DNA of 50,434 nt from an uncultured Candidatus Saccharibacteria bacterium (GCA_964572275.1 CAZNED010000003.1:1-50434), one strand, 5' to 3'. Positions 12,682 to 48,684 are shown, numbered from the stretch's first letter. The notes: generated by a model from the letters alone, not told the origin. Made by a program: numbers and translations.

Positions 12682-12687
12682 ATACGT

Positions 12688-12977
12688 GGGGACGCATGGC
12701 TTCGATAGAAGCTTGAATCAAGTGGTGCAGATTAAGGTGTCGAGTCCTTATTAAACTTTCGACAAAGTACAAGTGTCAACACACTTCGGGGTTTAACCCC
12801 CGCTTACGCTTACGCCTGATATTCTCAGAGTAAGCTTTCATAGTTTTTTGCCCCCATTCGTGGGGGAATCGTTTCAGAGGAACAACTGTTCCTTTTAGAC
12901 TCTTGCAAAAGGGCTAAGTCTGTAGAAGCTACTTGTATTCGTCCTTCTAGACGTGGGTTCGATTCCCACCGTCTCCA
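12688..12977 (+). ncRNA. ssrA: tmRNA (ssrA)
   Basis: The 5' end GGGGACGCATGGCTTCGA pairs with the 3' acceptor CGTCTCC followed by discriminator A. A canonical T-arm GTGGGTTCGATTCCCAC is present. An internal tag frame ends ...TPAYAYA-TGA (stop at 12817-12819). CCA is not encoded. Confidence 0.8.
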
Positions 12978-13030
12978 CTCTAATTAAAATTAACTTTCAC
13001 ATAATCGAACAATATTTTATCAACAATACT

Positions 13031-32573: not shown

Positions 32574-33697
32574 TTAGAACGAATGGGCATTAAAACATGC
32601 AAATAATCTTCTTGCCCATCTTGCTTGATAAGTGCCGCTTTATCTGCATCGGTTAAACATAGATAAGCGCTTGCTCCATTAATGTTCGTTAAAGCATCTG
32701 ATAAGAAGCGACCATTAAAAGCTATTTCCATATCTCCACCTGTTATCTCCGCAGATATCGATGATTTGAATTCTCCTACGCGAGAACTCTGGGCTTTTAT
32801 TTTGAGATTATTCTCTTCTGAGGAAACGGTTAGTCTTACTTCATAGGTTTGGTCAGAAAGTAGACTAGCAGCTTTAATTTTACTCAAGAATTCTTGTCGA
32901 TCAATTTTGATTGTAATCGGTGATTTATCGGGAATTACTTCTTGATATTTAGGGTAAGTTCCTTCTATTAAGCGCGAAACCATTCTTATTTCCAAATTAG
33001 AAGGAGCTTCGCCAAGAACTGTTAAGAATTCTATCTGATTATCATCTCCCGTAATTTTAACTGATGAATTAGATTCTCCGAGTATTCCAATAATATTATT
33101 AACCGCTTTTGCCGGTAAAATGATCTCATAATCTTTCTTCAATTTCTGAGATAAAGAAATCGTTTTTTGAGCCAATCGATAGCTATCAGTAGCAGCTAAA
33201 ATAAGTTGATCGTCTTTAAAATGCATATAAACTCCCGATATTTCCGGGCGGGTGCGCGATGGCGCTACGCATCCTATGACTTGCCTTAATCCTTCATTTA
33301 ATGCAGAACCGCTTATCTCTACTGTTAGTGACGATTCTGGTTTAGGAATAATTGGAAAATCTTCAGATTCCATAATCTGCAAAGATGTTTCATTCTCGGC
33401 ATCCTTGACGTTTAAAGTATTTTTTATCAATTCAATATAAAGCTTTTCATCGCTCATTAACCTACCAAGTGCGGATATAATACGCCCAGGGACTACAGCT
33501 TGCCCGTCTTTTGCAACTTTAGCTAGCGCTGTGACTTCGACTCCGATTTCTAAATCTGTAGCGGAAAAATGGACCGAATTATCATCAGCCTTGATCATTA
33601 TTCCTTCCAGAATAGGCAAGTTAGGACTCTTAATGGCAACTCTACTAACTATTGAGATAGCTTGATTAAGTTTTTCACGAAGGACTTCGATTTTCAT
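32570..33697 (-). CDS. dnaN: DNA polymerase III beta sliding clamp
   Basis: 375 aa. MKIEVLREKLNQAISIVSRV...LATDSYRLA-type segment (AATDSYRLAQ). It lies directly downstream of dnaA. Confidence 0.9.
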   Translation of the reverse strand: MKIEVLREKLNQAISIVSRVAIKSPNLPILEGIMIKADDNSVHFSATDLEIGVEVTALAKVAKDGQAVVPGRIISALGRLMSDEKLYIELIKNTLNVKDAENETSLQIMESEDFPIIPKPESSLTVEISGSALNEGLRQVIGCVAPSRTRPEISGVYMHFKDDQLILAATDSYRLAQKTISLSQKLKKDYEIILPAKAVNNIIGILGESNSSVKITGDDNQIEFLTVLGEAPSNLEIRMVSRLIEGTYPKYQEVIPDKSPITIKIDRQEFLSKIKAASLLSDQTYEVRLTVSSEENNLKIKAQSSRVGEFKSSISAEITGGDMEIAFNGRFLSDALTNINGASAYLCLTDADKAALIKQDGQEDYLHVLMPIRSN

Positions 33698-33916
33698 AAC
33701 TATAATAATATATTAATTATATAAATTTGTTGTTATTAGAGATGATGATTTTGTGGAAAAGATGATGAAAGCTAGATTGGTAAATGTTTTGTAAAAATAA
33801 TAATTTGGGGATAAAAAGGAAAACTTGTGGAAAATAAAATGGAATTTTGAAATTTTTTTCTAATCTCTATAAATTCTCAACTAATTCTACCATATTTACA
33901 CACTGATTATTCAGGA
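33698..33916. other. candidate oriC / DnaA-box cluster in the dnaA-dnaN spacer
   Basis: 219-nt AT-rich non-coding spacer. TTGTGGAAAA occurs twice (33751-33760 and 33825-33834) and TTGGGGATAA once (33805-33814). Each is one mismatch from the DnaA box TGTGGATAA. Confidence 0.5.
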
Positions 33917-35257
33917 TTACTCCCCATAAATTCTTTGTCGAATCATCCCTATTTCTTCAGATAAATGACCATCTTTTACCGCTTCTTGATCTATCTTAGT
34001 GCAAGCATATATCACCGTGGTATGATCTCGTCCTCCAAACAAATCACCGATACTCAAGTAAGATTTTTTTAGATCTTTACGCAATAAATACATAGCTATT
34101 TGTCGAGGATAAGCAATATCTTTTTTCCGAGTTGGAGAAAGTAATTCTTTTATCTCCAGATCATAATAGGCAGCCACAGAGGATATTATTTTTTGAGGAT
34201 TTGTTGATCGAACTTGAGTTCTAGTAAAATCCTTTAAGCATTTTTTAGCGGAATCAATATCAAGTTTAGTTTTCTTGAGATCTTGATAAGCCATGAGACG
34301 TTTTAATGCTCCTTCTAGCTCGCGAATATTATTTTGTACGTTAGTGGCCACATAATCTAATATTTCTGGAGGAATATCAGTTTTCCATTCTTTTGATTTG
34401 TTCTCTAAAATAGCTCGGCGACTTTCATAATCCGGTCTTCCTACGTCGGTAACCATTCCTCCTTCAAAGCGAGATCGAAGTCTCTTTTCAAGAGTAGGAA
34501 TGGCTGCGGGCAATCGATCAGAAGAAAGAATAATTTGACTATTTCTTTCATAAAGAGCGTTAAAAATATGGAAGAATTCTTCTTGAGTTTTGTCTTTACC
34601 GGCAACAAATTGAATATCATCAACTATCAATACGTCGAGTTGCTGAAATTCTTTTTTAAGAGCTTCGATATTCCTTGATTGAATGCTGCTGACAATCTGA
34701 GAAATTAGTTTATCAGCTGAAATATATTTAATCTTCATTTCATCTTCTTCGTCCAGTTTGTTTCCGATAGCCTGCAAAAGATGAGTTTTACCCAATCCAA
34801 CTCCACCATAGATGAAAAGAGGATTATATGCTCGTCCAGGGTCGCGAGTGACAGCTTCAGCGGCTGCATAAGCCATTTCGTTAAAAGAAGCGACAACAAA
34901 ATCGCGAAAAGTATACCTAGTATTTAAACCAGTTTTAGGATTAAGCTGGAGTTCTTCAAAAGGAATCTGTTTTGTGTGATTGACTTTGACTGGAACTTTT
35001 TCAACAGACTGTTTTTTAGAAATAATATATTTTATCTTACGAATATTAGGGTCGATTTCTCGAAGAGCCTTTAAAATGTCTTCATGATATTTTTTCTCAA
35101 GCCATTCTTTAGAGAATGAATTAGAGGTTCCGATAGAAACAGTGTCTCCTTCCCATTCTGCAATCTCTGCCTCTTTAAACCAAGCTGCAAAATTTGCGCG
35201 AGAAACACTAAACTGCAATTGCGCTAGGGCAGCTTTCCATAATTCATCTTTTGTCAT
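33917..35257 (-). CDS. dnaA: chromosomal replication initiator DnaA
   Basis: 446 aa. Walker A GGVGLGKTHLL, Walker B LIVDDIQF, sensor and DNA-binding helix (GGRDHTTVIYA). Confidence 0.95.
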   Translation of the reverse strand: MTKDELWKAALAQLQFSVSRANFAAWFKEAEIAEWEGDTVSIGTSNSFSKEWLEKKYHEDILKALREIDPNIRKIKYIISKKQSVEKVPVKVNHTKQIPFEELQLNPKTGLNTRYTFRDFVVASFNEMAYAAAEAVTRDPGRAYNPLFIYGGVGLGKTHLLQAIGNKLDEEDEMKIKYISADKLISQIVSSIQSRNIEALKKEFQQLDVLIVDDIQFVAGKDKTQEEFFHIFNALYERNSQIILSSDRLPAAIPTLEKRLRSRFEGGMVTDVGRPDYESRRAILENKSKEWKTDIPPEILDYVATNVQNNIRELEGALKRLMAYQDLKKTKLDIDSAKKCLKDFTRTQVRSTNPQKIISSVAAYYDLEIKELLSPTRKKDIAYPRQIAMYLLRKDLKKSYLSIGDLFGGRDHTTVIYACTKIDQEAVKDGHLSEEIGMIRQRIYGE

Positions 35258-35373
35258 AATAATGACACTTTAACACAATTAGCCATGCAATAGAATGAGT
35301 CAAAATACTCTTGTATTAAGGGCTTTCTAGGCAAGGGGGATAATATGTTAATATCTTGGGTAAGAACAGTTGA

Positions 35374-35402
35374 TTGACCAACCCCTATTTCGCTGATAAT
35401 CT
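35374..35402 (+). promoter_or_regulatory. candidate sigma70-type promoter for rnpA-yidC-jag
   Basis: TTGACC (35374-35379), 17 nt spacer, TAATCT (35397-35402), 21 nt upstream of the rnpA ATG. Confidence 0.35.
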
Positions 35403-35423
35403 TAAGCATTGTGAAATAATATA

Positions 35424-35759
35424 ATGTTGCCACGTTTTCATCGCCTAACCAAGAAATCTGATTTTGATGATGCCTACCGGTCAAAATGGGCGGTCAGTGG
35501 GCATTTCTTTCTTGCTAAGATAAAAACGAATGAATTAGGGCGCGTCAGAATTGGAATAGTGATCAGCAAGAAAATAATCAAAAAAGCTACTGGCCGGAAT
35601 AAAATAAAAAGACAGTTGCGTCAAATAGTTCGTCAAGAAGCTATACAAGTAAAAAAAGGAATCGATATTGTCATTGCTTGCAAGTCAGCAATTCAAAAAG
35701 CTAGCTATATAGAACTACAGAAAGAATGGCAATCAATTTGGTCAAAAATTAATCTTTAA
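35424..35759 (+). CDS. rnpA: ribonuclease P protein component
   Basis: 111 aa. LPRFHRLTKKSDFDDAY...ATGRNKIKRQLRQIVR (RNR motif region). Confidence 0.85.
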   Translation: MLPRFHRLTKKSDFDDAYRSKWAVSGHFFLAKIKTNELGRVRIGIVISKKIIKKATGRNKIKRQLRQIVRQEAIQVKKGIDIVIACKSAIQKASYIELQKEWQSIWSKINL

Positions 35760-35761
35760 TT

Positions 35762-36469
35762 ATGTCACTAGGAAATATCTTCCATATTATTCTATATCAA
35801 CCAATCCTGAATTTATTGATCCTACTTTATTATTACTTACCGGGTCATGATCTAATTTGGGCGGTAATTGTCTTAACCCTTATCTTAAAACTCGCCCTTC
35901 ATCCAATTTCCATGAAAGCGGTAATCGTCCAGGAAGCCATGAATAAGATTGATCCTAAGATGAAAGAAGTAAGAGAAAAGTATAAAGATGATCCAGCTAA
36001 ACAATCTAAAGAAATTATGGCTCTTTATAAAGAGCATCATGTGAATCCATGGTCAAGTTTAATGTATCCGCTGATACAACTTCCGATCATAATTGTTCTA
36101 TTTAGAATATTCCAAGATTTAAGTATTCTTGGTTTAAGCAGCAATCTTTATTCTTTCACGCCGATTATAGATTTAACCGAAATGACTTTTCTCGGAAATC
36201 CGAATTTGACCCAACCAAGTATAATCTTAGCCATCTTAGCGGGATTGGCTCAGTATTGGCAACAGAAAACAATGCCAACTCCAGCTAAAAAAAGCTCATG
36301 GCAAAAGAACATGATTTACTTTTTCCCGGCTTTTACATTTTTCATTCTAACTAGATTTAGTGCTGTTCTTGGAGTATACTGGCTAATAAATATTCTTTTT
36401 ACAATCGGTCAACAATATTATCTTAAGAGAAAAAGAACATGTTCCGACCCTCTGAAACAGAAAAAATAA
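35762..36469 (+). CDS. yidC: membrane protein insertase YidC (short form)
   Basis: 235 aa. ILLYYYLPGHD...WAVIVLTLILKLALHPIS...MKEVREKYKDDPAKQSKEIMALYKEHHVNP. Confidence 0.85.
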   Translation: MSLGNIFHIILYQPILNLLILLYYYLPGHDLIWAVIVLTLILKLALHPISMKAVIVQEAMNKIDPKMKEVREKYKDDPAKQSKEIMALYKEHHVNPWSSLMYPLIQLPIIIVLFRIFQDLSILGLSSNLYSFTPIIDLTEMTFLGNPNLTQPSIILAILAGLAQYWQQKTMPTPAKKSSWQKNMIYFFPAFTFFILTRFSAVLGVYWLINILFTIGQQYYLKRKRTCSDPLKQKK

Positions 36470-36897
36470 AAAAGACAGTTAAGCAATTTTTTGAATTTCT
36501 TAGTATCGATTCTCAGATTAAAGTAAATGAAATAGAAACCGATACTATTAAGATATCTCTCTGGGCTGAAGAAGCTCCATTTTTTATAGGAGAAAGAGGT
36601 GAAACTTTAGTCGAAACTCAAAGCTTGCTTAAAAAGATTTTAGCCAAACAATTAGGACGCTATATCTTTATTGATCTAGACATCAATAATTATAAGGAGA
36701 AAAAAGCAAAATATTTAGAAGATTTAGCTCGGACAGCGGCAGACCAAGTGGCTTTAACAAAGAGTCCTCAAACACTCAAACCGATGTGGGCTTGGGAGAG
36801 AAGAATCATCCACACGGCTTTAGCCGAAAGAAGCAATGTTTATAGCCAAAGCGCTGGACATGGGGAAAGTCGCCATATCGTTATCTATCCGGCTTAG
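36439..36897 (+). CDS. jag: Jag/SpoIIIJ-associated RNA-binding protein (KH + R3H)
   Basis: 152 aa. KH-like middle region (FIGERGETLVETQSLL) and R3H (ERRIIHTALAERSNVYSQSAGHGESRHIVIYP). Confidence 0.75.
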   Translation: MFRPSETEKIKKTVKQFFEFLSIDSQIKVNEIETDTIKISLWAEEAPFFIGERGETLVETQSLLKKILAKQLGRYIFIDLDINNYKEKKAKYLEDLARTAADQVALTKSPQTLKPMWAWERRIIHTALAERSNVYSQSAGHGESRHIVIYPA

Positions 36898-38465
36898 AGA
36901 TAGGGAATAATAGCGATGGCTTTAATGCGGGCACCATGCCGATAATTTCTCAAAACGAAAGATCCGAAGAGAGTAGGAGTGTTTTGAGTAATAATTGTGC
37001 AATCGCCGGTAAAATCTTCTTCAGAATTCAAAACGACTAAGAATTTTCCATCAATTTTGATAGAAAGAATATGTTCTTGGTCCCATTCATTCTTTCCATC
37101 AGGATAATCCAAATTCTTGTCCCAAATATTATTAACAGAATTCTGCTCTCCGATATCGCTGGCAGTAATAACTCGTGAAGGGAGTACATGCCCGGGGCTA
37201 CCTTCGCCATAATCAATACCAGAATAGAAAGTTACCTTACCTTCAAGGGTATCATTATCGAGATTGCGCTTAAAAACATGGGCACTATGAATTGAATTAT
37301 CTGGATCAGTTCCTACTCCTCCACCTATTCTTCCACCATAACTTGGATTAAAACCTGGCGTGAGTTCGAAAGTACCGGAAGTAGGCTGTTCTCCGAAGAT
37401 TAAAGCGCAACCTCCTTGGTAATTATTTTGAGTGAAAAAAACTCCAGCCCAAGGAATCTCGTCTCCGGCAAAGAATCCCTGGTCTTCTTCTAGAGAATAA
37501 AGAACAATACATTCGGTACGACCATTGTAACTACCTAAATCTGGATATGGAGATTTTATCAGCAAGGGGAGATTTCTGAGATTATCGCTGAAGTCATAAT
37601 CTCCGCAACGATAATCTTCCCCTGGAGCCGGGAAAAGGTAAAAACCGGATTGATATCTCCAAATATAGATAGATTGAGGGTATTCGATCGTTTCTCCAGA
37701 GCTAGAAGATCCCCCAAGTAATGCAGTTTCAGTCAGTGATTGCCAATGTTCATCAGTTTCGTCTTCAAAAGGATTAGTGTTAAGAATAATAATATAATCA
37801 CCTTTATAACCTTCTTCCGGGAAGACAAAAGCCGCAGCCATACCCGGGAATTTTTCCCTGAAACTGACCTCCTCGGCTATAAAACCGACAGGAAGTATCT
37901 CACTAGCATTCTGATCGAAACAATAGGTGCGAGGCTCAATTTGGCAACACTGAATTTGTTGCGCGCCGGTCGTTGATTCGCCTAGGGCCTCCTGGCAATT
38001 TTCTTCTTCAAGTTTTTCCCATCCTTCTGGGCAAGTCTCTCCCTCTTTCCATGATACCTCTCTGCCACGCAGGCAATATCCTTGGCTTGGTAATCCGGGG
38101 TCAGTTGGATCTTTAAAAAACTGAGGATCAATGGTATTTAAAGCTAAATGGGCACCAAGAATTATAGCAACACCGGATAATCCCGCTATGATGCGAGCGC
38201 GACCTTGCCGCATTCGTCCAGGAGAGCCGGCAGAAGTGAGGTAAACAAATCCTCCACTGACAAATGCCGCAAGGGCGATAATACCGGTAATGCCAACGGC
38301 GAAATAATAAATATATTCTAAATATTGAGGCAAAGCGAATCCTTCGCTAGGAGTTTCAACGCCAGGAATACTAGGATAAGTTGTCTCGAATTGTCGTGCC
38401 GCAAAAATAGTAAAAGGGATTAATGCAAGCAAGGCGATGAAGATAATTATTCTTTTAATAGACAT
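36894..38465 (-). CDS. surface protein: N-terminal VirB2/TrbC-like T4SS pilin module fused to a ~400-aa extracellular region
   Basis: 523 aa. Signal/TM, then YIYYFAVGITGIIALAAFVSGGFVYLTSAGSPGRMRQGRARIIAGLSGVAIILGAHLALNTIDP, a two-helix pilin hairpin paralogous to the neighbouring gene. The C-terminal region has repeated hxhYxxxxYxG strands. Confidence 0.55.
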   Translation of the reverse strand: MSIKRIIIFIALLALIPFTIFAARQFETTYPSIPGVETPSEGFALPQYLEYIYYFAVGITGIIALAAFVSGGFVYLTSAGSPGRMRQGRARIIAGLSGVAIILGAHLALNTIDPQFFKDPTDPGLPSQGYCLRGREVSWKEGETCPEGWEKLEEENCQEALGESTTGAQQIQCCQIEPRTYCFDQNASEILPVGFIAEEVSFREKFPGMAAAFVFPEEGYKGDYIIILNTNPFEDETDEHWQSLTETALLGGSSSSGETIEYPQSIYIWRYQSGFYLFPAPGEDYRCGDYDFSDNLRNLPLLIKSPYPDLGSYNGRTECIVLYSLEEDQGFFAGDEIPWAGVFFTQNNYQGGCALIFGEQPTSGTFELTPGFNPSYGGRIGGGVGTDPDNSIHSAHVFKRNLDNDTLEGKVTFYSGIDYGEGSPGHVLPSRVITASDIGEQNSVNNIWDKNLDYPDGKNEWDQEHILSIKIDGKFLVVLNSEEDFTGDCTIITQNTPTLFGSFVLRNYRHGARIKAIAIIPYL

Positions 38466-38479
38466 GATTTTTAAATAAT

Positions 38480-40948
38480 TTAAAACTTTTGTTCACCACA
38501 GAAATAGTCAAACATAAGATCGGCAATAGCTGCTTGGCATTCAGCGCTTTCCCTGTCTCGATAACAAGCAGCGCGCTGGCTTTCGGTCAAAGAATTATCA
38601 CCATAAGGAGATTGACTATTGTATGGATAACAAGTTTCAATAAGTGGATTGAATTTCATTCCTCCGCTATCTACTCCCAAGTCTTGCAGATAAAGCAACC
38701 AATAGCAACTGAAAGGCATAGTTGCGGCAGTAGCAAGCTCAGGATCATTCCCGAAACTAGAAATACATCGTGCTAATTTTTCTTGAGAATCTTGCAATTG
38801 ATTCAACATTTCAGCCCGGCTTGGTTGATGTTCCATAAGATTCATGGCTAAAATAAGGTTTTTAACTTGCTCGACTCTCTTTTTAACAGAATCGATATCT
38901 GTCTCATACCAATATTTCGTCTCATCTCTTCTTTTAAAAATCACACTGAGCGGGCAAGGATGGTATTCGCCACCAACCAGACAAGGAGTGCAGGCACAGC
39001 CGGGGCAACCCCCGCAATTATTGCACAAACAACCATGAGTTGTGCCACAACCCGGTCCACAACCGGCGCGGTCGCTAGTAACTAATGCATAACAAACACA
39101 TCGTGGTGGCAAATGATAAAGCCGACACTGATTATTTGGATCATTCTTATCGTATGATGGACACACAACTTCTGGAGCTGAGGTATCTACAAGGATTTTC
39201 ATTTCGCTCATTAATTCTTGAACATAGACTTCAGCATCATCTACTAATTGCCCAATCGCGATATTGCTTCTAGGATATCCCGAGACTACATATTGATCGA
39301 TAGTTGGTTCGGAAATTCCTTTTTGATCTTGAGTCAAAACAGGGGCTCCTATAAAATCCTTGGAGCAGTAAAACGTAATAGGATTTTGGCTCAACTGATT
39401 ACACTTATCACTATCTGTCTGAATGCGACACATGATTCCGAGTTCATCATCAACTTCACGTCCTTGAATCCCATCCTCCTGGTTGATACGATATTCAGAG
39501 CACTTGTAGGACACCAATTCTTCATCTCCCCAAGGAAAAGAAATAGCAATTCCTTTTTCTAAATCATCCAAATTGCAAATGCCGCAATTTGATTGCTCGC
39601 AATCAGTGCAACGAAATTCTAAACACCAACGATCGATATCAATTCTTTCTTCAACTATACAATCTTCACCCCATGCTGGCTGATTACCATTCAGGCAGAA
39701 TTTATTTCTTTCTAGACTTGTGAATGGATCTGATTCGGCTTCTTTTAGCAATTGAATAAAAGTAGCATGAGTAATGTAAGTTCCATGTTCGCATTGCATC
39801 TTGTACATTTCCTCAACTTTTTGAAGATAGCTTAAGTCAATTTCTAGGCTAGCAATATGAGGAGGCAGAAAATGACTGGCTAAGTATCTAATTTGATTGA
39901 CGACAGTCATTTTTTCATACGAATCAACAGAAACTTTCACTAATTCACTTTCTTTAAGCAAATTTCTTCCTTCTAATATTTGATGCATCCATAAACCGGC
40001 TCCACCTTCTTTGAATGTTTTAATGCGTATTTGATCAATTCGTGCTCGAGCTGGGCATGGATCACCACCGCAAGGAGCCCCGCAACGACAAGAGCCGAAC
40101 GGTATACAAGGGCATCCTCCACATGAATTACAAGCTCCACAATTACATTGACTAGTCAATTGAGCGAGTTCTTCGACTTTTTCCTTTAAGAAAAGGCTTT
40201 TAGCATCAAGCGCTCGGACAACTCTCTCAATGCAATCAAGCCGATCATTAGTGGGAATTGGCTGAATTCCAGGCTGACTGGGGTCTCCATCTAAGAATTC
40301 CCCATCTTTATCAAAAGCATAACAGAGATAAGCAATTTCAGCGTCTTTCGGTTCAGGATTAGGCCATGCCTCCGGAAAATCTCGAGACATAACATCTATA
40401 ATTCTTGATTTCTCTTCGCTTGTCACGGGTTGGCCGGAATGACAATCAACTAAATTGCTATTATTATCAAAACAACTTATATTTTTAGCCAATATTCTGG
40501 TTTCTAGAATGGTTCCAAAAGGCATTTCTTGATATTCGAAAACTGTTACTTCCGGCCCGGGAGGAGTATGAACTTCACCGTCCTTAAACGAAATCTCAGG
40601 CAATCTGAATATTTCGTTCAGAATGTCAGGATTTATTTGGCGAACAATAACATAAGAAGTTAATATCAGAGAAACTCCGAGCAATCCACCTATAACTCTC
40701 TTTTTGGCCTGTGCCATAGCCATAGGAGAACCAGCGGCTGTTAAATATCCCAATCCTCCCCATAATAAAGCGATAAAAGCAATAATGCCCGCACCGCTGA
40801 TGACGAAATTAAGCACGGTAGAGATCATCCTAGAAAAAGCTTCTAGTCTTTCAGTAGTCGCTTCTTCGGCAGCCAGAGAAGGGGATGCTAGAAAGAGTAA
40901 TAGAAATAATACAATTATTTTAATCATTTTTAGTTTCAAGATAAACAC
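38480..40948 (-). CDS. surface protein: N-terminal VirB2/TrbC-like T4SS pilin module fused to a ~700-aa cysteine-rich extracellular region
   Basis: 822 aa. Signal peptide, then ISTVLNFVISGAGIIAFIALLWGGLGYLTAAGSPMAMAQAKKRVIGGLLGVSLILTSYVIVRQINP. There are 46 Cys by hand count, all after residue 150, including two CxxC-dense knots. Confidence 0.55.
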   Translation of the reverse strand: MFILKLKMIKIIVLFLLLFLASPSLAAEEATTERLEAFSRMISTVLNFVISGAGIIAFIALLWGGLGYLTAAGSPMAMAQAKKRVIGGLLGVSLILTSYVIVRQINPDILNEIFRLPEISFKDGEVHTPPGPEVTVFEYQEMPFGTILETRILAKNISCFDNNSNLVDCHSGQPVTSEEKSRIIDVMSRDFPEAWPNPEPKDAEIAYLCYAFDKDGEFLDGDPSQPGIQPIPTNDRLDCIERVVRALDAKSLFLKEKVEELAQLTSQCNCGACNSCGGCPCIPFGSCRCGAPCGGDPCPARARIDQIRIKTFKEGGAGLWMHQILEGRNLLKESELVKVSVDSYEKMTVVNQIRYLASHFLPPHIASLEIDLSYLQKVEEMYKMQCEHGTYITHATFIQLLKEAESDPFTSLERNKFCLNGNQPAWGEDCIVEERIDIDRWCLEFRCTDCEQSNCGICNLDDLEKGIAISFPWGDEELVSYKCSEYRINQEDGIQGREVDDELGIMCRIQTDSDKCNQLSQNPITFYCSKDFIGAPVLTQDQKGISEPTIDQYVVSGYPRSNIAIGQLVDDAEVYVQELMSEMKILVDTSAPEVVCPSYDKNDPNNQCRLYHLPPRCVCYALVTSDRAGCGPGCGTTHGCLCNNCGGCPGCACTPCLVGGEYHPCPLSVIFKRRDETKYWYETDIDSVKKRVEQVKNLILAMNLMEHQPSRAEMLNQLQDSQEKLARCISSFGNDPELATAATMPFSCYWLLYLQDLGVDSGGMKFNPLIETCYPYNSQSPYGDNSLTESQRAACYRDRESAECQAAIADLMFDYFCGEQKF

Positions 40949-41456
40949 TTACTATCCAACTCAAAGCAATTTTTCCTAGGATAGGAACACTTTCTATTAA
41001 CCAGGGGATAAGAACTCTTAAAATCCATTTCTTAAAGATAGAAACAACTTTATTTGATCCACTGCCTCCGAGTGCCTGACCGAGGTTTTCTGCTGCCTGT
41101 TTGTCGAAAGAGGAGGTTGTCGAGCTAGAATCTGGAGAATCAACAGTTTTGGATTTAGAAGAATTTAAGGGAGCACTCTTTCTGGCAGCCATTTTTACTC
41201 CCGAAGAGATATCTCCTCTAAAAAATACTATCCAAATGGTAAAGAAAATCTTGCCAAAAAGATTAAGCATAAACTGAATGGCAACCCCAAGAGGGAATAA
41301 GACGACAGTTAAACTTAGGAGAAAGCATAGCAAACCTCCCATATCGAGTATAAAAGCGACTAAATAAGCAACCAAAGTATCCGCCGAAATGATGCCTCGA
41401 CGTGTTTCATCTCCAGAATCGTCAAATTCTTCAAAGGTTCCCGCGTATGAATTCAT
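40920..41456 (-). CDS. small membrane protein of the T4SS-like operon (unknown role)
   Basis: 178 aa. Acidic N-terminus, 3-4 TM helices, and an S/T-rich linker. It overlaps both neighbouring genes. Confidence 0.45.
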   Translation of the reverse strand: MNSYAGTFEEFDDSGDETRRGIISADTLVAYLVAFILDMGGLLCFLLSLTVVLFPLGVAIQFMLNLFGKIFFTIWIVFFRGDISSGVKMAARKSAPLNSSKSKTVDSPDSSSTTSSFDKQAAENLGQALGGSGSNKVVSIFKKWILRVLIPWLIESVPILGKIALSWIVSVYLETKND

Positions 41457-43248
41457 CTCTCTTTAAGGCACGCCGCGCCTCTTTGATTTTAATAACTTCT
41501 TCGGGATTGCTGGTAATAATTTGATCTTCGGTATAAGAAGCAACGACTTGAATAGCAACTCGTTTATTACCGGCAAAAAACAATCCTTCTCCGACACTGC
41601 TTGATAAGATCAAATGTTTTTCTCCCATTGTTAATCCGAAAGTGTTGGCAATAACATCAACGGATGTACTTGATTGTTTCATCAATAATTGCAGGGAAGA
41701 GTTATTTAAGATAGGGACACCGTATGGCGAGCTAAGGAAATCGTTGACATCCTGAGTGATAGTAGTTAGCCCCAACCAATATTTTCTAGCTCTTTTAGCC
41801 ATTCCAAACAGGAAAGATGCTCCGTCCGGGGATTGCATGATGACCCAAGCCTCATCGATAACAACAATTCTCTTTTTCATCTCACCGCGAATTTCATTCC
41901 AAATATAGTGCAAGATAATATACATGGCCATCGGGCGCAATTCATCTTCCATATCTCGAATACCAAAAACCACCAAATGGCGATCAATCTCTATATTAGT
42001 ATGATTGTTAAAGAAATTAGCGTAACTTCCTAGAGTAAATTTACGAGTTCTTTGACCTAATGATTCGGCTCCTTCCATGCTTTCGAGAACAGCTTGAAAA
42101 TCACTCATTAAAGGAGGCTCAAGTTTGGCAAAATTGGCATCGGCGGAAATATCTTTAGAAGCATATGTTTCAATAATCGCCTGATCGATAATAGAATCTT
42201 CTTCTGGTGTTAGCCCGCCAAGCATAATACGGAATAATCCGACCAATTCAACAGTATTTCTTCTAAGAACATCGGCTGGATTTTCATCAAGACCGACTTT
42301 AGGCAAATCAAATGGATTGAGATGATGAGGTGAGCTTAAAGAAATATTGATATAGGAACCATCGGCAGCATCACTTAAGAACTCATATTCATTTTCAGGA
42401 TCGATAATTAAAACATCGACTCCTTCCATCATTAATCTTAAAATCTCTAGCTTAGTCGCATAGCTTTTCCCCCCACCAGATTTTCCGAAAATAACCATAT
42501 TGGCATTTTCGAGGGAAAATCTGTCAAAAAGAACCAAAGAATTGTTATGTTTATTAATTCCATAGAGAATCCCTTCGTTGGAGCTTAAATCAAAAGAAAT
42601 AAATGGGAAAACACTAGACAGAGGAGACGTATTCATGGGGGTGTGGACCATCAACTGATCCAGTCCGTATGGAGCGCAGGTATAAAATCCTTCTTTCTGC
42701 TGAAAGGATGCCGGTTTAATGTAAACTAGTCGCGACTCAAGAATAGATCTAATTTCTATTTCAGCATCACGCAATTCCTTTTCTTCATCTCCGGAAATAG
42801 CGAAGTAAATGCCGATTTGAAACATTTTTTCTTGAGCAGTTCGCAATTTGTTGCGCAACTCCTCAATATCTTGAAAAGCAGTTTCAAGTTCGGGATCACG
42901 CACTAATCCTTTTTCCTCTCGTTCCATTAATTCTGCTTGTATTTCCGTAGTTTTTTTTCTTAATTTCTTTAGTATAGGAGTAGTTTCAATCGGATGGAAG
43001 AAAAATGAAATACTGATAGGTCGGCTCATATTAATAATAGGGGCAAGCCATCCAACTGAAAGATATCGAGGATAAGAAAAAACAAATAAAGTTCTAATCA
43101 GGCGACCTCTTAGATCAACGCTATTCTGGTTGATTTGGACAGAAGGTGGCGCAATTAAATCATGAAGAGTCACCGCTCTTGCCGGAGCAGTCGATGTTTG
43201 TTCTTTCGATTGAAATGTTTCTTTTAATTTACCAAACATTTTATTCAA
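41431..43248 (-). CDS. virB4: VirB4/TrbE/CagE-family type IV secretion ATPase
   Basis: 605 aa. Walker A VIFGKSGGGKSYATK, then LIIDPENEY, NPFDLP, Walker B RIVVIDEAW and ARKYWLGLTTITQDVNDF. Confidence 0.85.
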   Translation of the reverse strand: MNKMFGKLKETFQSKEQTSTAPARAVTLHDLIAPPSVQINQNSVDLRGRLIRTLFVFSYPRYLSVGWLAPIINMSRPISISFFFHPIETTPILKKLRKKTTEIQAELMEREEKGLVRDPELETAFQDIEELRNKLRTAQEKMFQIGIYFAISGDEEKELRDAEIEIRSILESRLVYIKPASFQQKEGFYTCAPYGLDQLMVHTPMNTSPLSSVFPFISFDLSSNEGILYGINKHNNSLVLFDRFSLENANMVIFGKSGGGKSYATKLEILRLMMEGVDVLIIDPENEYEFLSDAADGSYINISLSSPHHLNPFDLPKVGLDENPADVLRRNTVELVGLFRIMLGGLTPEEDSIIDQAIIETYASKDISADANFAKLEPPLMSDFQAVLESMEGAESLGQRTRKFTLGSYANFFNNHTNIEIDRHLVVFGIRDMEDELRPMAMYIILHYIWNEIRGEMKKRIVVIDEAWVIMQSPDGASFLFGMAKRARKYWLGLTTITQDVNDFLSSPYGVPILNNSSLQLLMKQSSTSVDVIANTFGLTMGEKHLILSSSVGEGLFFAGNKRVAIQVVASYTEDQIITSNPEEVIKIKEARRALKRDEFIRGNL

Positions 43249-43894
43249 TAATTTCAGGCATAATGGATGGATAATAGCCGTGTTCAGCAGAAGCGGGATG
43301 ATGGAGAGACCAAAATAATTCTATAATTTCAGGCGATGTCAAAGGAACGGCTTCTAATTCACAACGCCTGAGACCAATGGCAACGAATTCCATGCGTTGG
43401 ATCAATTGCATTCGAGCTCGTTGAAATGCTTCAGCAGACATTACCTGTTTTACTTGGTCTTTCTTACGAAGCATTTCTCGGGCAGCAGAAACAGTTCCTT
43501 GAACTTCAGCAAGAGTGTATGGAACAATAATATAAAATGATTTCCCCATGATGACTCCTTTATTCAGAATATCTGTAATAAATTGACGATAATCACTGGT
43601 TTGAGCCTTCATTAATTCATTTGTTTGCTGCTCCTCTAATTTTTTTAGTCGTTCTAGATAACCGGTCATGTTAACTCGACGTGATTGAACGAGGATTTGA
43701 GTAGTGAAGTCAAGTGAGTTTAAGAAATTCTGAAATTGGTAGATAATAGCTTGTTGTTCGTCGGATGATTTTAATGCAAAATTAATGGAGGAAACCATTA
43801 ATATTCCTCTTAATCCTCCGCTACGCAAAATTACAACGCCTTCTTTTATCTCACTGAAAGGCAAGAATTGTTGACTGTATGCTTGGCCGTTCAT
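43241..43894 (-). CDS. T4SS-associated cytoplasmic protein, resembles a VirB4 N-terminal domain without the ATPase
   Basis: 217 aa. FSEIKEGVVILRSGGLRGILMVSSINFALKSSDEQQAIIYQFQNFLNSLDFTTQILVQS follows the N-terminal pattern I recall from Firmicutes VirB4-type ATPases. It overlaps PrgI-like by 4 nt and virB4 by 8 nt. Confidence 0.4.
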   Translation of the reverse strand: MNGQAYSQQFLPFSEIKEGVVILRSGGLRGILMVSSINFALKSSDEQQAIIYQFQNFLNSLDFTTQILVQSRRVNMTGYLERLKKLEEQQTNELMKAQTSDYRQFITDILNKGVIMGKSFYIIVPYTLAEVQGTVSAAREMLRKKDQVKQVMSAEAFQRARMQLIQRMEFVAIGLRRCELEAVPLTSPEIIELFWSLHHPASAEHGYYPSIMPEIIE

Positions 43895-44310
43895 TTTTTA
43901 GTCTCGATAGAGCTTTTTAATTTTTCTAAACGTCCTCGTGGGGCCAACGTAAGCAAATCATTATTTTCCTGAGAAATTGACATTTTCCCTAATTTCGGAC
44001 TATCCAGAATAATGGGGAAATCAGCCTTTATCTCTTCTTTATGCCATAAATAGCGCCGAGAAGAAAAAAGATAACCAAAAGCATAGGTTAGTACATCGGC
44101 TAAGGCTCGGCCACCAGGTTTCAAGAATGCTAAAGCTAATCCGGCTACAACAATGATTGGTACAATCAACCAAGCTATGGCTCTCGGTAAAATTGACCAA
44201 AGCAGAAAAGCGATTCCAGCTGCTCCAGCTAAAAAGAGGATTTGTTTAAAATGCAAAGATCCGACGATCTTAGCTTCTCTTTCTATAAATTGAGGGACAG
44301 AATATTGCAT
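43891..44310 (-). CDS. PrgI-family (VirB3-like) two-TM T4SS protein
   Basis: 139 aa. MQYSVPQFIEREAKIVGSLHFKQILFLAGAAG followed by two TM helices, the typical PrgI-family opening. Confidence 0.65.
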   Translation of the reverse strand: MQYSVPQFIEREAKIVGSLHFKQILFLAGAAGIAFLLWSILPRAIAWLIVPIIVVAGLALAFLKPGGRALADVLTYAFGYLFSSRRYLWHKEEIKADFPIILDSPKLGKMSISQENNDLLTLAPRGRLEKLKSSIETKK

Positions 44311-44312
44311 GA

Positions 44313-44762
44313 TTATCCTATGGGTTCACGATATGGATCTGGAGTTTTTTGGGCAGAATAAGTGTCAGGATCAGGAGATGATATTTGGCCAGAGTCTTTA
44401 AGAGAGGCATCTTTATCTGGTTTAATACCATAATGTTTGTTTAAATCATTATGAAGGCGATTCAAAATAAAAGCATCTAATTCTCCTCTTACGAAATTGA
44501 GCTTGTCGCCGTCAAGATTCAAGCGGCGATTCAATTCATTATTTATATTATCAAAAGGTAAAAATCCCAATAAAATGTCATAAACAATGCCTGATAATTC
44601 CTGCGCTTCTTCTTCATTGAATTTATAGCGATTGGTAATATTTTCAAGAACATCAATCATCTCCACAGAAAGATAGGCGTCTTGTATGGCCGGTGGTAAT
44701 TTACTAATCAATTTCAGTAATTCGATCTGAGGCAATTGACTTCGGCGACTGAGTTTTTCCAT
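44313..44762 (-). CDS. hypothetical soluble protein in the T4SS-like operon
   Basis: 149 aa ORF, co-directional, with 2-5 nt gaps to its neighbours. I recognise no motif. Confidence 0.4.
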   Translation of the reverse strand: MEKLSRRSQLPQIELLKLISKLPPAIQDAYLSVEMIDVLENITNRYKFNEEEAQELSGIVYDILLGFLPFDNINNELNRRLNLDGDKLNFVRGELDAFILNRLHNDLNKHYGIKPDKDASLKDSGQISSPDPDTYSAQKTPDPYREPIG

Positions 44763-44767
44763 ATTAT

Positions 44768-46780
44768 TTAGACATATCCCTGATTACGCCAAGCATTAAG
44801 AGTTGCTTTTACGCTTGGGTCATTAAGGCGCCCTAATGTGTCAGCCCTAGTTCGGAATTTCATAGCGAAAACTTTTTGTTCTGTCGGCGACATGGATTTA
44901 ATAATATCTCGATTAACCTCGCGTTTGCCTCCCAGCATGGCATCAACTATATAATTTATCCTATCGACATAAGCAGTTCTTTCGGCTGCTGTAGTAGGCT
45001 TATCTTTAAGAGCGCTTTTGAAGACATCGGCTACAAGAGTGGCTCCTTTCTGGTCAACCTTTGCTAAAGATTCTTGGGAATAGGATTCACCTGCTTTCTT
45101 TATTCCTAAGGCGATTGCTTGTGCATCAATAGCGGCTCCGTGTTTTCCGGATTGAGATATAGCGAATTTTTTAGCATCACTCTCATTCCCTTGCTGTAGT
45201 AGTGCAGTAAATGTACGTACGGCAGCGTCCTCAGGAAGATTTAGGGATCCTAATGTTTTTAGAGCGGTATCTTCGTGACTTGATAATAACTCATGCATAG
45301 CAGCAGCAGTTTTTTCGGGATTGACGCGAGGATCGTAGACCATGGCTGTAAGTTTTTCTGGATCTGTTTCTTGTAGTTTTTTCCGAAAGTGAGAATGCTC
45401 GATTTTCCTCTTTTCCATCTTTTCAGTAACGCTCAAATAACGGGAGGCGTGAGCTTTTTCTATACTAGTAGCTCCTGAGCTTTTCATAATTTCTTGAGCA
45501 ACACGATGGCGGGCATAATGGTTCGTCCCGCGATCATCCCATCCATGAGTTGCAATTCCCAGACGACTTGCTGTATCAAACACATGAGACCCTTCGTTTC
45601 TTTGTCGGACAGTATCACGAGTTTGAGCTCCGCGATATTTTGTCTGGTCCCAACCCCACGATTTTGCTTTATCGAATCCACCTTTTGTGAGTCCCATAAT
45701 TTGGTTACTGACAGAAGGGGCTAGTTTCAAACTAATCATATATCCGATATAGACCAATGCTGCTGGCATAACAAAATAGAAAGTTTCGGAAGGCATGGCA
45801 TCTTGCGTGCCAGTGGCTGTTTGCAAGCTGAGTGCTTGTGATAATTTTGCGGAAGTTCCTGCCCAGAATACTTTATCTTTAATTATTTCCATCATTTGAG
45901 CGGCTAGGAAAAGGAAAAAAGCTACGGGAATTCCAAGGAAGGTCCAACTTATGAAATTTGACCACCATTGAGACCAGAATTTTTTACCACCTGGGAAAGC
46001 GAAAGCAAGAAAGGCCAGTGGTGATAAAATTACTAGAATCCAGAGCATGACATAACGTACTAAAAAAGTGAAGGCGAGAATAAAATAAATAACGCCCACA
46101 AAAAACATGCTTGCGGCAAGAGCAAAAAGCTGTACGAAAGACTGCAATATACTAGTGTCAGGATTTGCAATCCACATTACAGATTGTCCAAGCATCCCAG
46201 CAAAATCAAGTTTTCCTCCACGAATCATGAAATAATCCATGGCAACATGCGAAGCATCGATTGCTAATCCAATTAGGGTTGGAGTGAAATTAATTAAAAA
46301 TGCCAAAGCGATAAGCCTAATTAAAGTTTTTTTTGTCTTCGGGCCAGACATATCTAACGCCGTCCTCAAGCCTGTATAAACTAGTCCCAAAATAATGCCA
46401 ATATTGGCTAGATCCCTAACCAGACGCCAATTTTCATAAACAAATGTATTATCAGCCCCCGTGAAAGAGACAGAAAGGAATCCAGGATCGCTTATCCAAG
46501 AGAAAAGTAGTTGGGCTAAAGATAAGAATCCTAAAGTTAGAGCGATAACGAGGGAAAAAATAATACCTACGATTGCCTTGCCAATACTTTCTAAAATATT
46601 AACAAAAATATTTCCACCTCTAGATTTCTGGGTATAATTTTCTATATCTTCAAATGCAAGTCCTAATTCACCCTCTAATTCGTCTTCGGCTCTCAGGGGC
46701 GCAGAAACAGCACTGAGACCTAAGAGTACAATAATTCCCGCAAGGATAAATAAATTTCTCCTTTTGATTTTACATTTCAT
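44768..46780 (-). CDS. VirB6/TrbL-like polytopic membrane protein with a ~300-aa soluble C-terminal region
   Basis: From the ATG at 46780: MKCKIKRRNLFILAGIIVLLGLSAV (signal/TM), then at least 7 TM helices over about 350 aa, then a hydrophilic tail. It sits upstream of PrgI/VirB4 as VirB6-type genes usually do. The track start at 46837 would overlap rsmA. Confidence 0.5.
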   Translation of the reverse strand: MKCKIKRRNLFILAGIIVLLGLSAVSAPLRAEDELEGELGLAFEDIENYTQKSRGGNIFVNILESIGKAIVGIIFSLVIALTLGFLSLAQLLFSWISDPGFLSVSFTGADNTFVYENWRLVRDLANIGIILGLVYTGLRTALDMSGPKTKKTLIRLIALAFLINFTPTLIGLAIDASHVAMDYFMIRGGKLDFAGMLGQSVMWIANPDTSILQSFVQLFALAASMFFVGVIYFILAFTFLVRYVMLWILVILSPLAFLAFAFPGGKKFWSQWWSNFISWTFLGIPVAFFLFLAAQMMEIIKDKVFWAGTSAKLSQALSLQTATGTQDAMPSETFYFVMPAALVYIGYMISLKLAPSVSNQIMGLTKGGFDKAKSWGWDQTKYRGAQTRDTVRQRNEGSHVFDTASRLGIATHGWDDRGTNHYARHRVAQEIMKSSGATSIEKAHASRYLSVTEKMEKRKIEHSHFRKKLQETDPEKLTAMVYDPRVNPEKTAAAMHELLSSHEDTALKTLGSLNLPEDAAVRTFTALLQQGNESDAKKFAISQSGKHGAAIDAQAIALGIKKAGESYSQESLAKVDQKGATLVADVFKSALKDKPTTAAERTAYVDRINYIVDAMLGGKREVNRDIIKSMSPTEQKVFAMKFRTRADTLGRLNDPSVKATLNAWRNQGYV

Positions 46781-47625
46781 TTCTCTTTGATTATAGCATT
46801 TTTCTTTTTTAGAAAACAATATAAAAGCTTGAGCCAATTGTTCTTATCCAATGCTTCAGCTCTTATCTTTTCATTGAAACCGCATTCAGATAAAAAATGG
46901 GAATCTATTCCCAAGGATTTTAGATTATTTAATAAAGTTTTACGCGGGGAAGAAAAGCCTATCTCAATCAAATTCATCAAATCTTGGTCAAAAGAATGCT
47001 TCTCAATGTTAGAAATCTTTAAGATAGCGGCTGAAACTTCAGGCTTGGGCCAAAAATCGGAGGAGGAAACATTTTGGATGATCTGACAATCTCCTCGAAA
47101 TTGACACATCATTGCTAAACGATTGCTTTTTGGCGGTTTGGCACAAATTCTTTCAGCAACTTCTTTCTGGATCATTATAATAATCGTAGATGGAAGATGA
47201 ACGAGGGTGATCATGCTTACAATTAAATGAGATGTTAAATAAAAAGGTAAATTAGCTACTATTTTATATCTGGACAGATCGGGGTTTTCTTTTAAAAAAC
47301 ATCGCACGTCTTGATTAAGAATAGTTACATTATTGATGTGATCAAATCTTTGTTTCAGAATATTGAATAAATCAGGATCTTTCTCAATGGCCAAAACTTG
47401 ACAAGATTTATCAATCAGAGCTTGAGTTAGAATCCCTAAACCGGCTCCAATCTCTAAAACCAAATCTCCTGGATTCAATTCAGCGACATCAATAATATCG
47501 GTTAAAACTTTATTATTAATTAAAAAATTTTGCCCAAGGTGCTTTTTGGGGCGTAATCCTTTCTCTTGCAATATAGACCTAGCATCTCCTGCTAAATTTA
47601 TTATTGGGGATAACTTTCTTGACAT
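46777..47625 (-). CDS. rsmA: 16S rRNA (adenine1518/1519-N6)-dimethyltransferase
   Basis: 282 aa. HLGQNFLINNKVLTDII...VLEIGAGLGILTQAL...ANLPFYLTS. Confidence 0.9.
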   Translation of the reverse strand: MSRKLSPIINLAGDARSILQEKGLRPKKHLGQNFLINNKVLTDIIDVAELNPGDLVLEIGAGLGILTQALIDKSCQVLAIEKDPDLFNILKQRFDHINNVTILNQDVRCFLKENPDLSRYKIVANLPFYLTSHLIVSMITLVHLPSTIIIMIQKEVAERICAKPPKSNRLAMMCQFRGDCQIIQNVSSSDFWPKPEVSAAILKISNIEKHSFDQDLMNLIEIGFSSPRKTLLNNLKSLGIDSHFLSECGFNEKIRAEALDKNNWLKLLYCFLKKKNAIIKEK

Positions 47626-47657: not shown

Positions 47658-48644
47658 ATGCATCTGTCTAAGAGGGCAGGGATTTCTTTTTTAGCCCTCG
47701 CGATAGTTTTATTAGTAATCATTCTCTGGCCTTGCTCGCCGGCCGAATTGGTGTCCGATCGTTATGTGCTGAATTCATCAAGCGAGTTTGTTTCGGCTTT
47801 AAACAAAGCGGAAACTTTTTCTTTTTCACATATCAGTCTAATTCAAGATAATAGCGTGCAGGTTTCTACCTCGCCAAGCGTTTCAGGAAAAACGCTAGGA
47901 ACATTAGTTAGTGATGGATATGATTATCGGAGTCAAACTTTCACTTATTCAGTCCAATCTGGCGATACAATCTCAAGCTTAGCTGAAAAATTCAATATTT
48001 CCATTGATACTATATTATGGAGCAACGATTTAAAAGCAACAGATAAACTCAGAGAAGGAGATCGTTTGATAGTATTACCAGTTTCCGGATTGCTGCATTT
48101 AGTTAATCGCAATGAAACATTAAGCCAGATTGCTAGTAGTTATAATGTTAAAGAATCAGAAATTCTTTCCTTTAATCAATTAAGCGATGCAGACTCTATT
48201 TTTATAGGAGATTTATTGATTATTCCGGGCGGACAAAAACCAATTCAGCCTCACGTGATTGCTCAACAACCAATCGCCTCTTCCTATTTTATCATACCGA
48301 CATCCGGGAAAATCTCTCAAGGATTGCATTATTACAATGCAATTGATATAGCTAATAATTGTGGAACACCGATCTATGCTGCCGCTGCCGGAACCGTCCA
48401 GCGTGCCGGATACATCTCGATAGGGGGAAATAGAGTGCAGGTTATCCATCCTAATGGCGTTGTAACTTATTATGGACATCTTTCTCAGATATCCGTTGTG
48501 TCTGGTCAATCAGTTGTTCAAGGGCAAGAGATTGGTCGTATGGGAACTACTGGCTTATCGACAGGATGCCATCTTCATTTCGATGTTCGAGGAGCAGTCA
48601 ATCCGTTAGCTCGCTACGCTGTTGGTACTTATATTAATTTCTAA
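47658..48644 (+). CDS. secreted peptidoglycan hydrolase: 2x LysM + M23 metallopeptidase
   Basis: 328 aa. LysM repeats YSVQSGDTISSLAEKFNISIDTILWSN and HLVNRNETLSQIASSYNVKESEILSFN. M23 motifs GIDIA-type (AIDIAN), HPNGVVTYYGHL and GCHLHFDV. Confidence 0.85.
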   Translation: MHLSKRAGISFLALAIVLLVIILWPCSPAELVSDRYVLNSSSEFVSALNKAETFSFSHISLIQDNSVQVSTSPSVSGKTLGTLVSDGYDYRSQTFTYSVQSGDTISSLAEKFNISIDTILWSNDLKATDKLREGDRLIVLPVSGLLHLVNRNETLSQIASSYNVKESEILSFNQLSDADSIFIGDLLIIPGGQKPIQPHVIAQQPIASSYFIIPTSGKISQGLHYYNAIDIANNCGTPIYAAAAGTVQRAGYISIGGNRVQVIHPNGVVTYYGHLSQISVVSGQSVVQGQEIGRMGTTGLSTGCHLHFDVRGAVNPLARYAVGTYINF

Positions 48645-48653
48645 AAGAAAAAT

Positions 48654-48684
48654 AAAACGGCCATACAATTAGCCGTCTTTTTTA
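48654..48684 (+). terminator. rho-independent terminator, probably bidirectional
   Basis: ACGGC (48657-48661), 10-nt loop, GCCGT (48672-48676), then CTTTTTT. An A-run on the 5' side serves the convergent gene. Confidence 0.6.

Follow-up and report, generated by a model that had tools for sequence, protein, structure and literature searches.

How should two dense clusters of cysteine on a putative pilus protein be understood? The question is raised by a stretch of DNA of 50,434 nucleotides (nt) from an uncultured Candidatus Saccharibacteria bacterium, one of the ultrasmall Patescibacteria (GCA_964572275.1 CAZNED010000003.1:1-50434; the whole stretch is called the window below). [quoted passage not shown] The gene is defined by the open reading frame (ORF) list, by translation and by its orthologues (P0001-P0016, plus the distant P0017 and P0019), and all features of its locus given below lie on the same strand. 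The original prediction described the two clusters as knots that might be either a metal-cluster or metallothionein-like site or a knot of disulfides on a protein that is secreted and carried on a pilus. The reading we favor, with a probability of roughly 0.55, is that they are helix caps laced with disulfides and belong to a T4SS subunit that is pilus-borne or part of a stalk. The extracellular domain architecture and the recurrent Cys-knot module are undescribed, whereas the type of protein that carries them and its secretion system are known.

By translation the protein contains 46 Cys, none of them ahead of residue 159, in agreement with the predicted 46 Cys with none in the first 150 of 822 residues. 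Cys makes up 5.6% of the protein versus 0.80% across the window's 43 other ORFs (the probability of at least 46 Cys in 822 residues is ~4e-24), and at the protein's own Cys frequency the chance of the clusters is ~0.004 and 0.01 after window-position correction. Knot 1 (residues 268-299, 40052..40147) was delimited by translation, orthologue alignment and AlphaFold2 (AF2) modeling; it has the entry C.C and the exit GDPCP.R and is followed by a helix at 301-310. Its residues 268-298, CNCGACNSCGGCPCIPFGSCRCGAPCGGDPC, hold 10 Cys in 31 aa at nt 40055-40147, exactly as predicted. The knot 2 region, defined by the same three means, spans residues 596-666 (38951..39163), with a core at 617-666, the exit PCP at 664-666 and a helix at 666-683. 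Residues 617-665, CVCYALVTSDRAGCGPGCGTTHGCLCNNCGGCPGCACTPCLVGGEYHPC, hold 12 Cys in 49 aa at nt 38954-39100; the predicted residues and Cys count stand, and the start predicted at 38951, which takes in the next Pro of PCP, is corrected to 38954. The third, looser cluster said to lie between the knots was found at residues 430-458 (39575..39661) with 6 Cys.

The predicted structure places both knots in similar surroundings. AF2 gave a predicted local distance difference test (pLDDT) score of 62 with 16 sequences and of 76 with 29 sequences, the latter with a predicted template-modeling score of 0.74. The extracellular part is modeled as mainly helical with small beta elements, and each knot is set between long helices, 236-265 and 301-310 for knot 1 and 565-595 and 666-683 for knot 2. 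The long helix into knot 1 (residues 236-265, 40154..40243; pLDDT ~90) opens with a (H)DRLDC motif that includes C239 and recurs across the module family described below. The helix towards knot 2 belongs to residues 556-595 (39164..39283), which carry a second IxIG motif; this motif, IAIGQLVDDAE at residues 561-571, opens the C-terminal half of the protein, and the segment is represented by the sub-profile 'IPIG2'. Residues 667-822 (38483..38950) form a helical C-terminal domain (AF2 pLDDT 85-95) in which an hmmalign alignment of 52 such domains arranges six Cys as the pairs 728/817, 748/773 and 795/804.

At the N-terminus lie a predicted signal peptide and a pilin hairpin. The ORF finder starts the gene at a GTG, but the true start may be the ATG of Met8, 21 nt downstream at nt 40927, because the database protein P0001, identical over 815 aa, begins there. 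Note that a start at the GTG at 40948 would give an overlap of 29 nt with the 178-aa gene upstream. Residues 1-26 (40871..40948) form a predicted Sec-type signal peptide, recognized by its sequence and by a hydrophobic segment at 1-30, with a hydrophobic core, the sequence ...SLAAEE and a putative cleavage site; sequence inspection found no twin-arginine motif in it. A VirB2/TrbC-like T4SS pilin hairpin follows at residues 27-113 (40610..40870) and ends in an INP motif. It is supported by Pfam, by the AF2 helices (32-70 and 75-105) and by the family profile, and the two further hydrophobic segments (41-73 and 84-103) fall within it; the basic loop AQAKKR lies between the two hairpin helices. 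The scores of PF18895 (T4SS_pilin, 24.4 bits, cut-off 26.6) and PF04956 (TrbC/VirB2, 22.6 bits, cut-off 27.9) are below their cut-offs and both matches cover residues 40-103, and a precomputed PF18895 match is present on several orthologues. Judged by the topology known for pilins of the VirB2 type, some 700 residues behind the hairpin would lie outside the cell.

Those 700 residues found no informative match in the collections searched. Pfam and NCBIfam coverage is restricted to residues ~4-105, where it includes a weak match to a Mycoplasma pilin-like protein of an integrative and conjugative element. Searches of the whole protein against both collections, and of six sub-segments against Pfam at E <= 10, gave nothing beyond the hairpin except noise-level IBR and B-box Pfam matches (E 0.07-0.12) confined to the middle cluster. 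The protein found no match in the PDB by sequence or by profile. Foldseek searches with both AF2 models against the PDB (best E > 2), and with the first model against BFVD, returned only generic helical hairpins, with nothing better than E ~1.3. The original prediction could not assign the motif to any family, and neither Pfam and NCBIfam nor the PDB and Foldseek supplied one; no described Cys-rich family matches.

The cysteines are strongly conserved. A word-indexed protein search returned only 19 relatives, all nameless or called 'hypothetical', and a homologue search with a 29-sequence alignment (A3) recovered the same 19 proteins and nothing deeper. In a 16-sequence orthologue alignment (A1), whose members are 33-81% identical to the window protein, all sequences share 33 of the Cys, and 42 of the 46, among them every Cys of both knots, occur in at least 15 of the 16 sequences. 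The Cys positions, whose loss among orthologues would have told against the prediction, are therefore conserved. Within the clade the knots are among the best-kept segments even at their non-Cys positions (majority fraction 0.61-0.65), and in knot 2 an HGC at 638-640 is invariant. The top-conserved stretch of the protein in a conservation scan is YQEMPFGTILETRILAKNISC (residues 137-159, 40472..40540), a strand plus helix directly after a Pro-rich linker.

Beyond the orthologues, knot 1 belongs to a recurrent module that is widespread among the pilin-fusion proteins of Patescibacteria. The family profile had 47,577 matches among 1.84 billion representatives, mostly via the pilin hairpin. A set of 172 sequences, consisting of the best 147 new representative matches, the 19 homologues and six window proteins, was scanned with sub-profiles. 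The segment 236-312 (helix, knot 1, helix) was found in 106 of the 172 and always just behind the pilin hairpin; the 'IPIG2' segment and the 'link' sub-profile, which covers the region of YQEMPFGTILETRILAKNISC, each matched 67, and the C-terminal domain 53. The knot-1 module reads (H)DRLDC, a ~28-residue helix ending in L..L...C.C, a loop rich in Cys, Gly, Ser and Pro, then (G)DPCP.R and a helix. In a consensus of 50 modules the entry C.C and the exit C are invariant and G.PC..R is near-invariant; knot 1 fits this consensus and knot 2 fits it more loosely. The loop has 17-72 residues and 6-16 Cys in 62 cleanly delimited modules, and reaches 24 Cys in P0009. The module is short, and its alignment (A2) found nothing at E <= 1e-3 in a 5.8e9-sequence database.

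Is knot 2 then a second copy of this module? The original prediction rested the likeness on a shared PCP ending and on CN[SN]CGGCP, which does occur in both knots of the window protein, as CNSCGGCP (273-280) and CNNCGGCP (642-649), but does not hold beyond the closest relatives. The literal knot-1 8-mer is confined to the window protein and the identical P0001; P0002, the closest orthologue, has CNPCGGCP, and the other orthologues have C[GS]CG.CPC at this site. The shared 8-mer is thus largely coincidental or lineage-specific. The two 8-mers use different codons (16 of 24 nt identical) and no DNA repeat joining the knots was found, so that a recent DNA duplication was rejected and the likeness lies at the protein level, as had been proposed. 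What both knots share is a looser pattern, L..L...C.C followed by a CxxC run and then PCP plus helix. An hhalign comparison of residues 131-330 with 540-720 aligned this entry, Cys run and exit with a probability of 86.5%. The score of 21.4 compares with 12.9 +/- 9.3 in a column-shuffle control and was reached by 4 of 200 shuffles; the evidence is therefore modest. A purely compositional origin, in which two independent Cys-rich loops came to look alike and share the 8-mer by chance, draws on those four shuffles, on the narrow distribution of the 8-mer and on the lack of any detected likeness between the two protein halves outside the knots. Against it, entry, Cys run and exit all align, both knots sit between long helices, and in three family members (P0092, P0106 and P0154) the knot-1 profile matches a further copy at the place of knot 2. 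We consider a compositional origin possible but somewhat unlikely, and it touches only the relation of one knot to the other, not the reality of the knots. There is modest evidence, at the level of sequence patterns, that knot 2 may be a second, more divergent copy of the knot-1 module.

In at least one lineage the protein is split. In locus L017 an N-half gene (2-703), running from knot 1 to ...GEPATFYFPAAEFK*, stops after the middle domain, and a C-half gene (734-1822, P0114) follows 31 nt on; it starts with a signal peptide of its own and carries the IxIG helix, knot 2 and the C-terminal domain. The 822-aa protein therefore consists of two fused halves, each of which has a single knot. The gene context of stand-alone C-halves rests on L017, as the other contigs were mostly too short and L016 and L018 were uninformative. 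Further stand-alone C-halves are P0057, P0075, P0076 and P0135.

Whether the knots are held by disulfides or by metal was approached through the pattern of Cys loss and gain. C455 in the middle cluster and C516 are lost together in P0006 and P0008. C728 and C817 are lost together in P0004, P0007 and P0010, and C748 and C773 in P0024, P0025 and P0029 of the hmmalign set, in which C795 and C804 are always both present. C159 and C169 are co-absent in 9 of 10 cases, and an extra Cys pair at alignment positions 548 and 818 in 12 of 12. Cys outside the knots are thus lost and gained in pairs, which is a classical disulfide signature and fits an exported protein. Among the 62 modules, 45 have an even and 17 an odd number of Cys (p = 2.5e-4); when the close clade is left aside, 33 are even and 17 odd (p = 0.016). 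Modules with 6, 8 or 10 Cys occur at about the same frequency, and His accounts for 1.1% of knot residues. Such variable Cys counts and lengths with few His do not fit one fixed metal site. The knots are most likely held by disulfide bonds rather than metal clusters. Of the two natures originally proposed, a disulfide knot carried by an exported protein of the pilus is hence the better supported, by the signal peptide and topology, the five Cys pairs and the variable, mostly even counts; the metal or metallothionein-like site found no specific support.

For disulfide-laced helix caps the following mechanism can be proposed. The protein would be exported by Sec and anchored in the membrane by its VirB2-like hairpin, the features of which are observed and the topology of which is taken to be that of known pilins, so that ~700 mostly helical residues of novel fold would be displayed outside the cell. 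Oxidative folding of this ectodomain would convert the 46 Cys to disulfides, as covariation indicates for five pairs and as we infer for the knots. The knots would be Cys/Gly/Pro/Ser-rich, disulfide-laced loops, each capping a pair of long helices, and would staple the helical scaffold, so that outside the cell it keeps its rigidity and resists proteases. The knots may in addition provide a conserved surface for contacts and could play a role in host contact.

Several observations weigh against disulfide-laced caps. AF2 leaves both knots at pLDDT <50, all five covarying Cys pairs fall outside the knots, and 17 of the 62 delimited modules have odd Cys counts. The total Cys number of the orthologues, 40-61, is odd as well as even and is uninformative as a disulfide test. 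The knots have Cys densities of ~25-32% in CxC and CxxC arrangements that are also typical of metal-thiolate proteins, and H638 of knot 2 is an invariant His. Many such organisms inhabit anoxic water. [quoted passage not shown] The fit of a 700-residue C-terminal domain into a VirB2-type filament is in question. Finally, the conservation scan found no hypervariable tip among the orthologues; this speaks against a classical variable adhesin and suggests a structural core subunit instead.

Some of these points are claimed by the reading of the knots as metal-thiolate sites, either structural knuckles of the Zn(Cys)4 type or Zn/Cu clusters like those of metallothioneins that would be loaded after export. 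Such sites would fold the helix caps or sequester metal at the cell surface. Cys densities of 24-32% with CxC and CxxC runs, the invariance of the Cys positions and of the HGC in knot 2, and even Cys counts, which suit Cys4 sites too, are all in keeping with it. In the AF2 model, which includes no ligands, long stretches of low confidence occur only in the knots (271-294 and 613-665) and in three middle-region loops (453-456, 489-503 and 509-519), a failure compatible with a missing ligand. However, a module may have from 6 to 24 Cys, with 6 and 10 as frequent as 8 and with variable spacing and length, a variation that a defined cluster geometry would not tolerate. The scarcity of His and the pairwise covariation typical of disulfides elsewhere in the same extracellular protein also argue against metal. 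Zinc-finger, zinc-ribbon and metallothionein models gave no match even at E <= 10, and at that threshold both knot segments are without a match to any Pfam family, which covers the zinc ribbon and the DnaJ-type CxxCxGxG zinc finger. We therefore regard metal-thiolate sites as unlikely.

Metallothioneins themselves are small (<~10 kDa) cytosolic proteins that lack a signal peptide and have ~30% Cys in CxC and CxxC arrangements. The 822-aa protein, with its Sec-type signal peptide and membrane hairpin, differs from them in size and location. The knots reach such a Cys density locally (10 of 31 and 12 of 49 residues), where any metal binding is hypothetical, and the varying number of Cys in relatives speaks against a fixed cluster. 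A local Cys density of 25-33% in CxC and CxxC runs is common to the knots, to metallothioneins and to CxxC-rich surface proteins such as the extracellular variant-specific surface proteins of Giardia. The present protein differs from both groups in having short Cys caps within a large helical protein and a Cys number that varies between relatives.

The knots could alternatively act as hinge-like cross-links between subunits, with intermolecular disulfides to neighboring copies or to a 523-aa partner protein locking a multimeric tip or wall-spanning stalk. Their richness in Cys, Pro and Gly would suit this role. In P0009, P0011, P0013 and P0014 knot 1 is enlarged to 16-24 Cys (alignment A1, columns ~360-440) by acidic Cys/Pro tandem repeats of the form C-x-P-x-x-P-x, for example CEPEEPCDPNDPD..., and such a Cys/Pro repeat composition recalls immunoglobulin hinge regions. 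The knots remain unmodeled in a monomer prediction, the odd Cys counts of about a quarter of the modules would leave unpaired Cys, and a conserved partner gene is adjacent in the loci compared. Even counts nevertheless prevail and intramolecular pairing is the simpler explanation, which leaves the cross-link reading doubtful. A wider proposal, which we rate as improbable, is that the helix-knot-helix module defines a new Patescibacteria-specific class of T4SS pilus or stalk subunit, in which disulfide or metal-bridged cross-links would run among subunits or to the partner of ~420-520 aa. Were it true, these cross-links would covalently lock the wall-spanning or tip complex by which the essential T4SS engages the host cell, and monoderm pilus building would be unlike that of Gram-negative VirB2/VirB5 pili and sortase pili.

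Fe-S clusters in a ferredoxin-like CxxCxxC setting for extracellular redox chemistry can be dismissed: CxxCxxCxxC runs do occur at 270-279 and 642-651, but the spacings are CxxCxxCxC and CxxCxxCxxCxC rather than the canonical CxxCxxCxxxCP, no Fer4 Pfam match was found, the Cys number varies across the family, and the Sec route, the only one indicated by a signal peptide that lacks a twin-arginine motif, cannot export a folded cofactor-bearing domain, so that a ferredoxin-type 4Fe-4S site was rejected.

The genomic setting places the gene for the Cys-rich protein in a T4SS operon. The genes are tightly packed in the order VirB6-like, 149-aa, PrgI, TrsD-like, VirB4, 178-aa, 822-aa and 523-aa. 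The first (44768..46837) encodes a polytopic membrane protein with six hydrophobic segments that is VirB6/TrbL-like by orthology (33% identity over 378 aa to a gene of locus L001 with PF19590 TrbL_3). PrgI, which is VirB3-like (43891..44310), was identified by PF12666 (29.3 bits, cut-off 27). The next product (43241..43894) is TrsD/TraC-like and related to the VirB4 N-terminal region, as judged from weak matches to NF041427, NF045975 and NF045971 and from a syntenic gene with PF26593. The VirB4-like conjugal-transfer ATPase of the CD1110 family (41431..43248) matches NF045971 with 365.6 bits (cut-off 325) and PF19044 with 95.9 bits. The small 178-aa membrane protein (40920..41456) has three hydrophobic segments, and a small protein occurs at the same position in related loci.

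Directly downstream of the Cys-rich gene lies a second pilin-fusion gene (36894..38465), whose 523-aa product has 10 Cys and was recognized by PF18895 (24.7 bits) and by the local pilin profile (3.4e-24). The pilin profile is the sole sub-profile to match it, the knot module is absent, and its C-terminal part of ~400 aa is without a Pfam family match. In related loci the partner at this position has 497-499 aa (L001-L003) or 423 aa (L019-L020). Conserved synteny suggests that the VirB4/VirB3/VirB6 machine may build the 822-aa protein and this partner into a pilus, a tip or a wall-spanning stalk.

The operon (36894-46837) adjoins rnpA-yidC-jag and dnaA-dnaN (32570-36897), that is, the replication origin, a placement also found in L001-L003 and the distant L019. 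Gene order is identical around P0012 (44% identity) in L001-L003; around P0019 (24% identity) in L019 the T4SS gene set is the same and the order is rearranged. The relatives found in genome collections come from metagenome-assembled genomes labeled Candidatus Saccharibacteria or Patescibacteria. A promoter and terminator scan of the operon gave no more than the shuffled expectation. Patescibacteria have an origin-proximal, Gram-positive-type T4SS with VirB2-like pilins that is essential in Southlakia epibionticum (PMC12102498, PMC10633639, PMC12857230), and the window operon matches this published system. The same accounts of VirB2-like pilins describe no large Cys-rich fusion domain.

Other features of the window were seen in passing. 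A LysM/M23 peptidase gene (47658-48644) flanks the T4SS locus, and just past it a minus-strand gene (48682-50250) encodes a 522-aa Lys/Glu-rich, coiled-coil-like protein with one C-terminal membrane anchor, no Cys and no Pfam match. On the plus strand, 26381-29458 holds an ATPase for type II/IV secretion (T2SSE, 381 bits) between a 359-aa protein with no Pfam match and a lamin-tail-domain protein; the group may belong to the type IV pilus machinery that these bacteria typically have. The isoleucyl-tRNA synthetase (5762-9238, minus strand; 1158 aa) contains a histidine-phosphatase domain (His_Phos_1, 118 bits) that interrupts its class I synthetase core at residues 485-645, which is an unusual in-frame insertion. 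At 12235-12980 (plus strand) smpB has a tmRNA gene with the tag peptide VNTLRGLTPAYAYA directly behind it, an ordinary arrangement.

Comparison with characterized proteins defines how far the 822-aa protein departs from known T4SS components. It shares with VirB2/TrbC pilins (PF04956, PF18895; PMC12102498, PMC10633639) the signal peptide, the two-helix hydrophobic hairpin with its basic loop and an origin-proximal position beside VirB4, VirB3 and VirB6 homologues, a context kept in L001-L003 and L019; the adjacent second pilin-domain gene recalls Patescibacteria pilin arrays. In contrast, canonical VirB2 pilins have ~70-130 aa, a size far exceeded here by the ~700-aa, 46-Cys C-terminal extension, and membership of the VirB2 pilins is to be read with the Pfam scores in mind, which are just under the curated cut-offs.

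The nearest functional analogy is TraN of F-like plasmids (PMC9246713), a T4SS-associated surface protein of cell-cell contact with many conserved Cys; its 22 conserved Cys are all predicted to be in intramolecular disulfides (PMC9246713). TraN, however, is a beta-rich outer-membrane protein of diderms with a variable tip, whereas the 822-aa protein is helical and hairpin-anchored and lacks a hypervariable tip, and it showed neither a TraN Pfam match at E <= 1 nor a PDB fold match. VirB5/TraC pilus-tip proteins of Gram-negative T4SS offer another possible functional analogy, being helical extracellular T4SS subunits that probably sit on the pilus or stalk and contact the target cell. VirB5 is not known to carry a pilin hairpin or to be rich in Cys. 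A search for VirB5/TraC homology gave no Pfam or NCBIfam match, no PDB profile match and only Foldseek hits of E > 2. The 822-aa protein is an undescribed elaboration of a known system, not a new kind of system.

What this elaboration means follows from the place of the T4SS in the life of these bacteria. In the single species tested, the system is essential for growth as an epibiont, and its function and extracellular architecture are enigmatic (PMC10633639, PMC11665869, PMC12857230). Published surveys count 'VirB2-like pilins', and the large Cys-rich extracellular domains that some of these carry are not described in the accounts cited here. The present analysis defines a conserved protein of ~820 aa whose gene neighbors VirB4 and the replication origin. 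It further defines a Cys-knot module that recurs, and an architecture of two halves that in some cases are separate genes. The Cys-knot domain merits a family definition of its own. It also leads to the hypothesis that oxidative folding of the ectodomain would depend on MdbA or VKOR, and it provides concrete candidates for the part of the T4SS that may touch the host.

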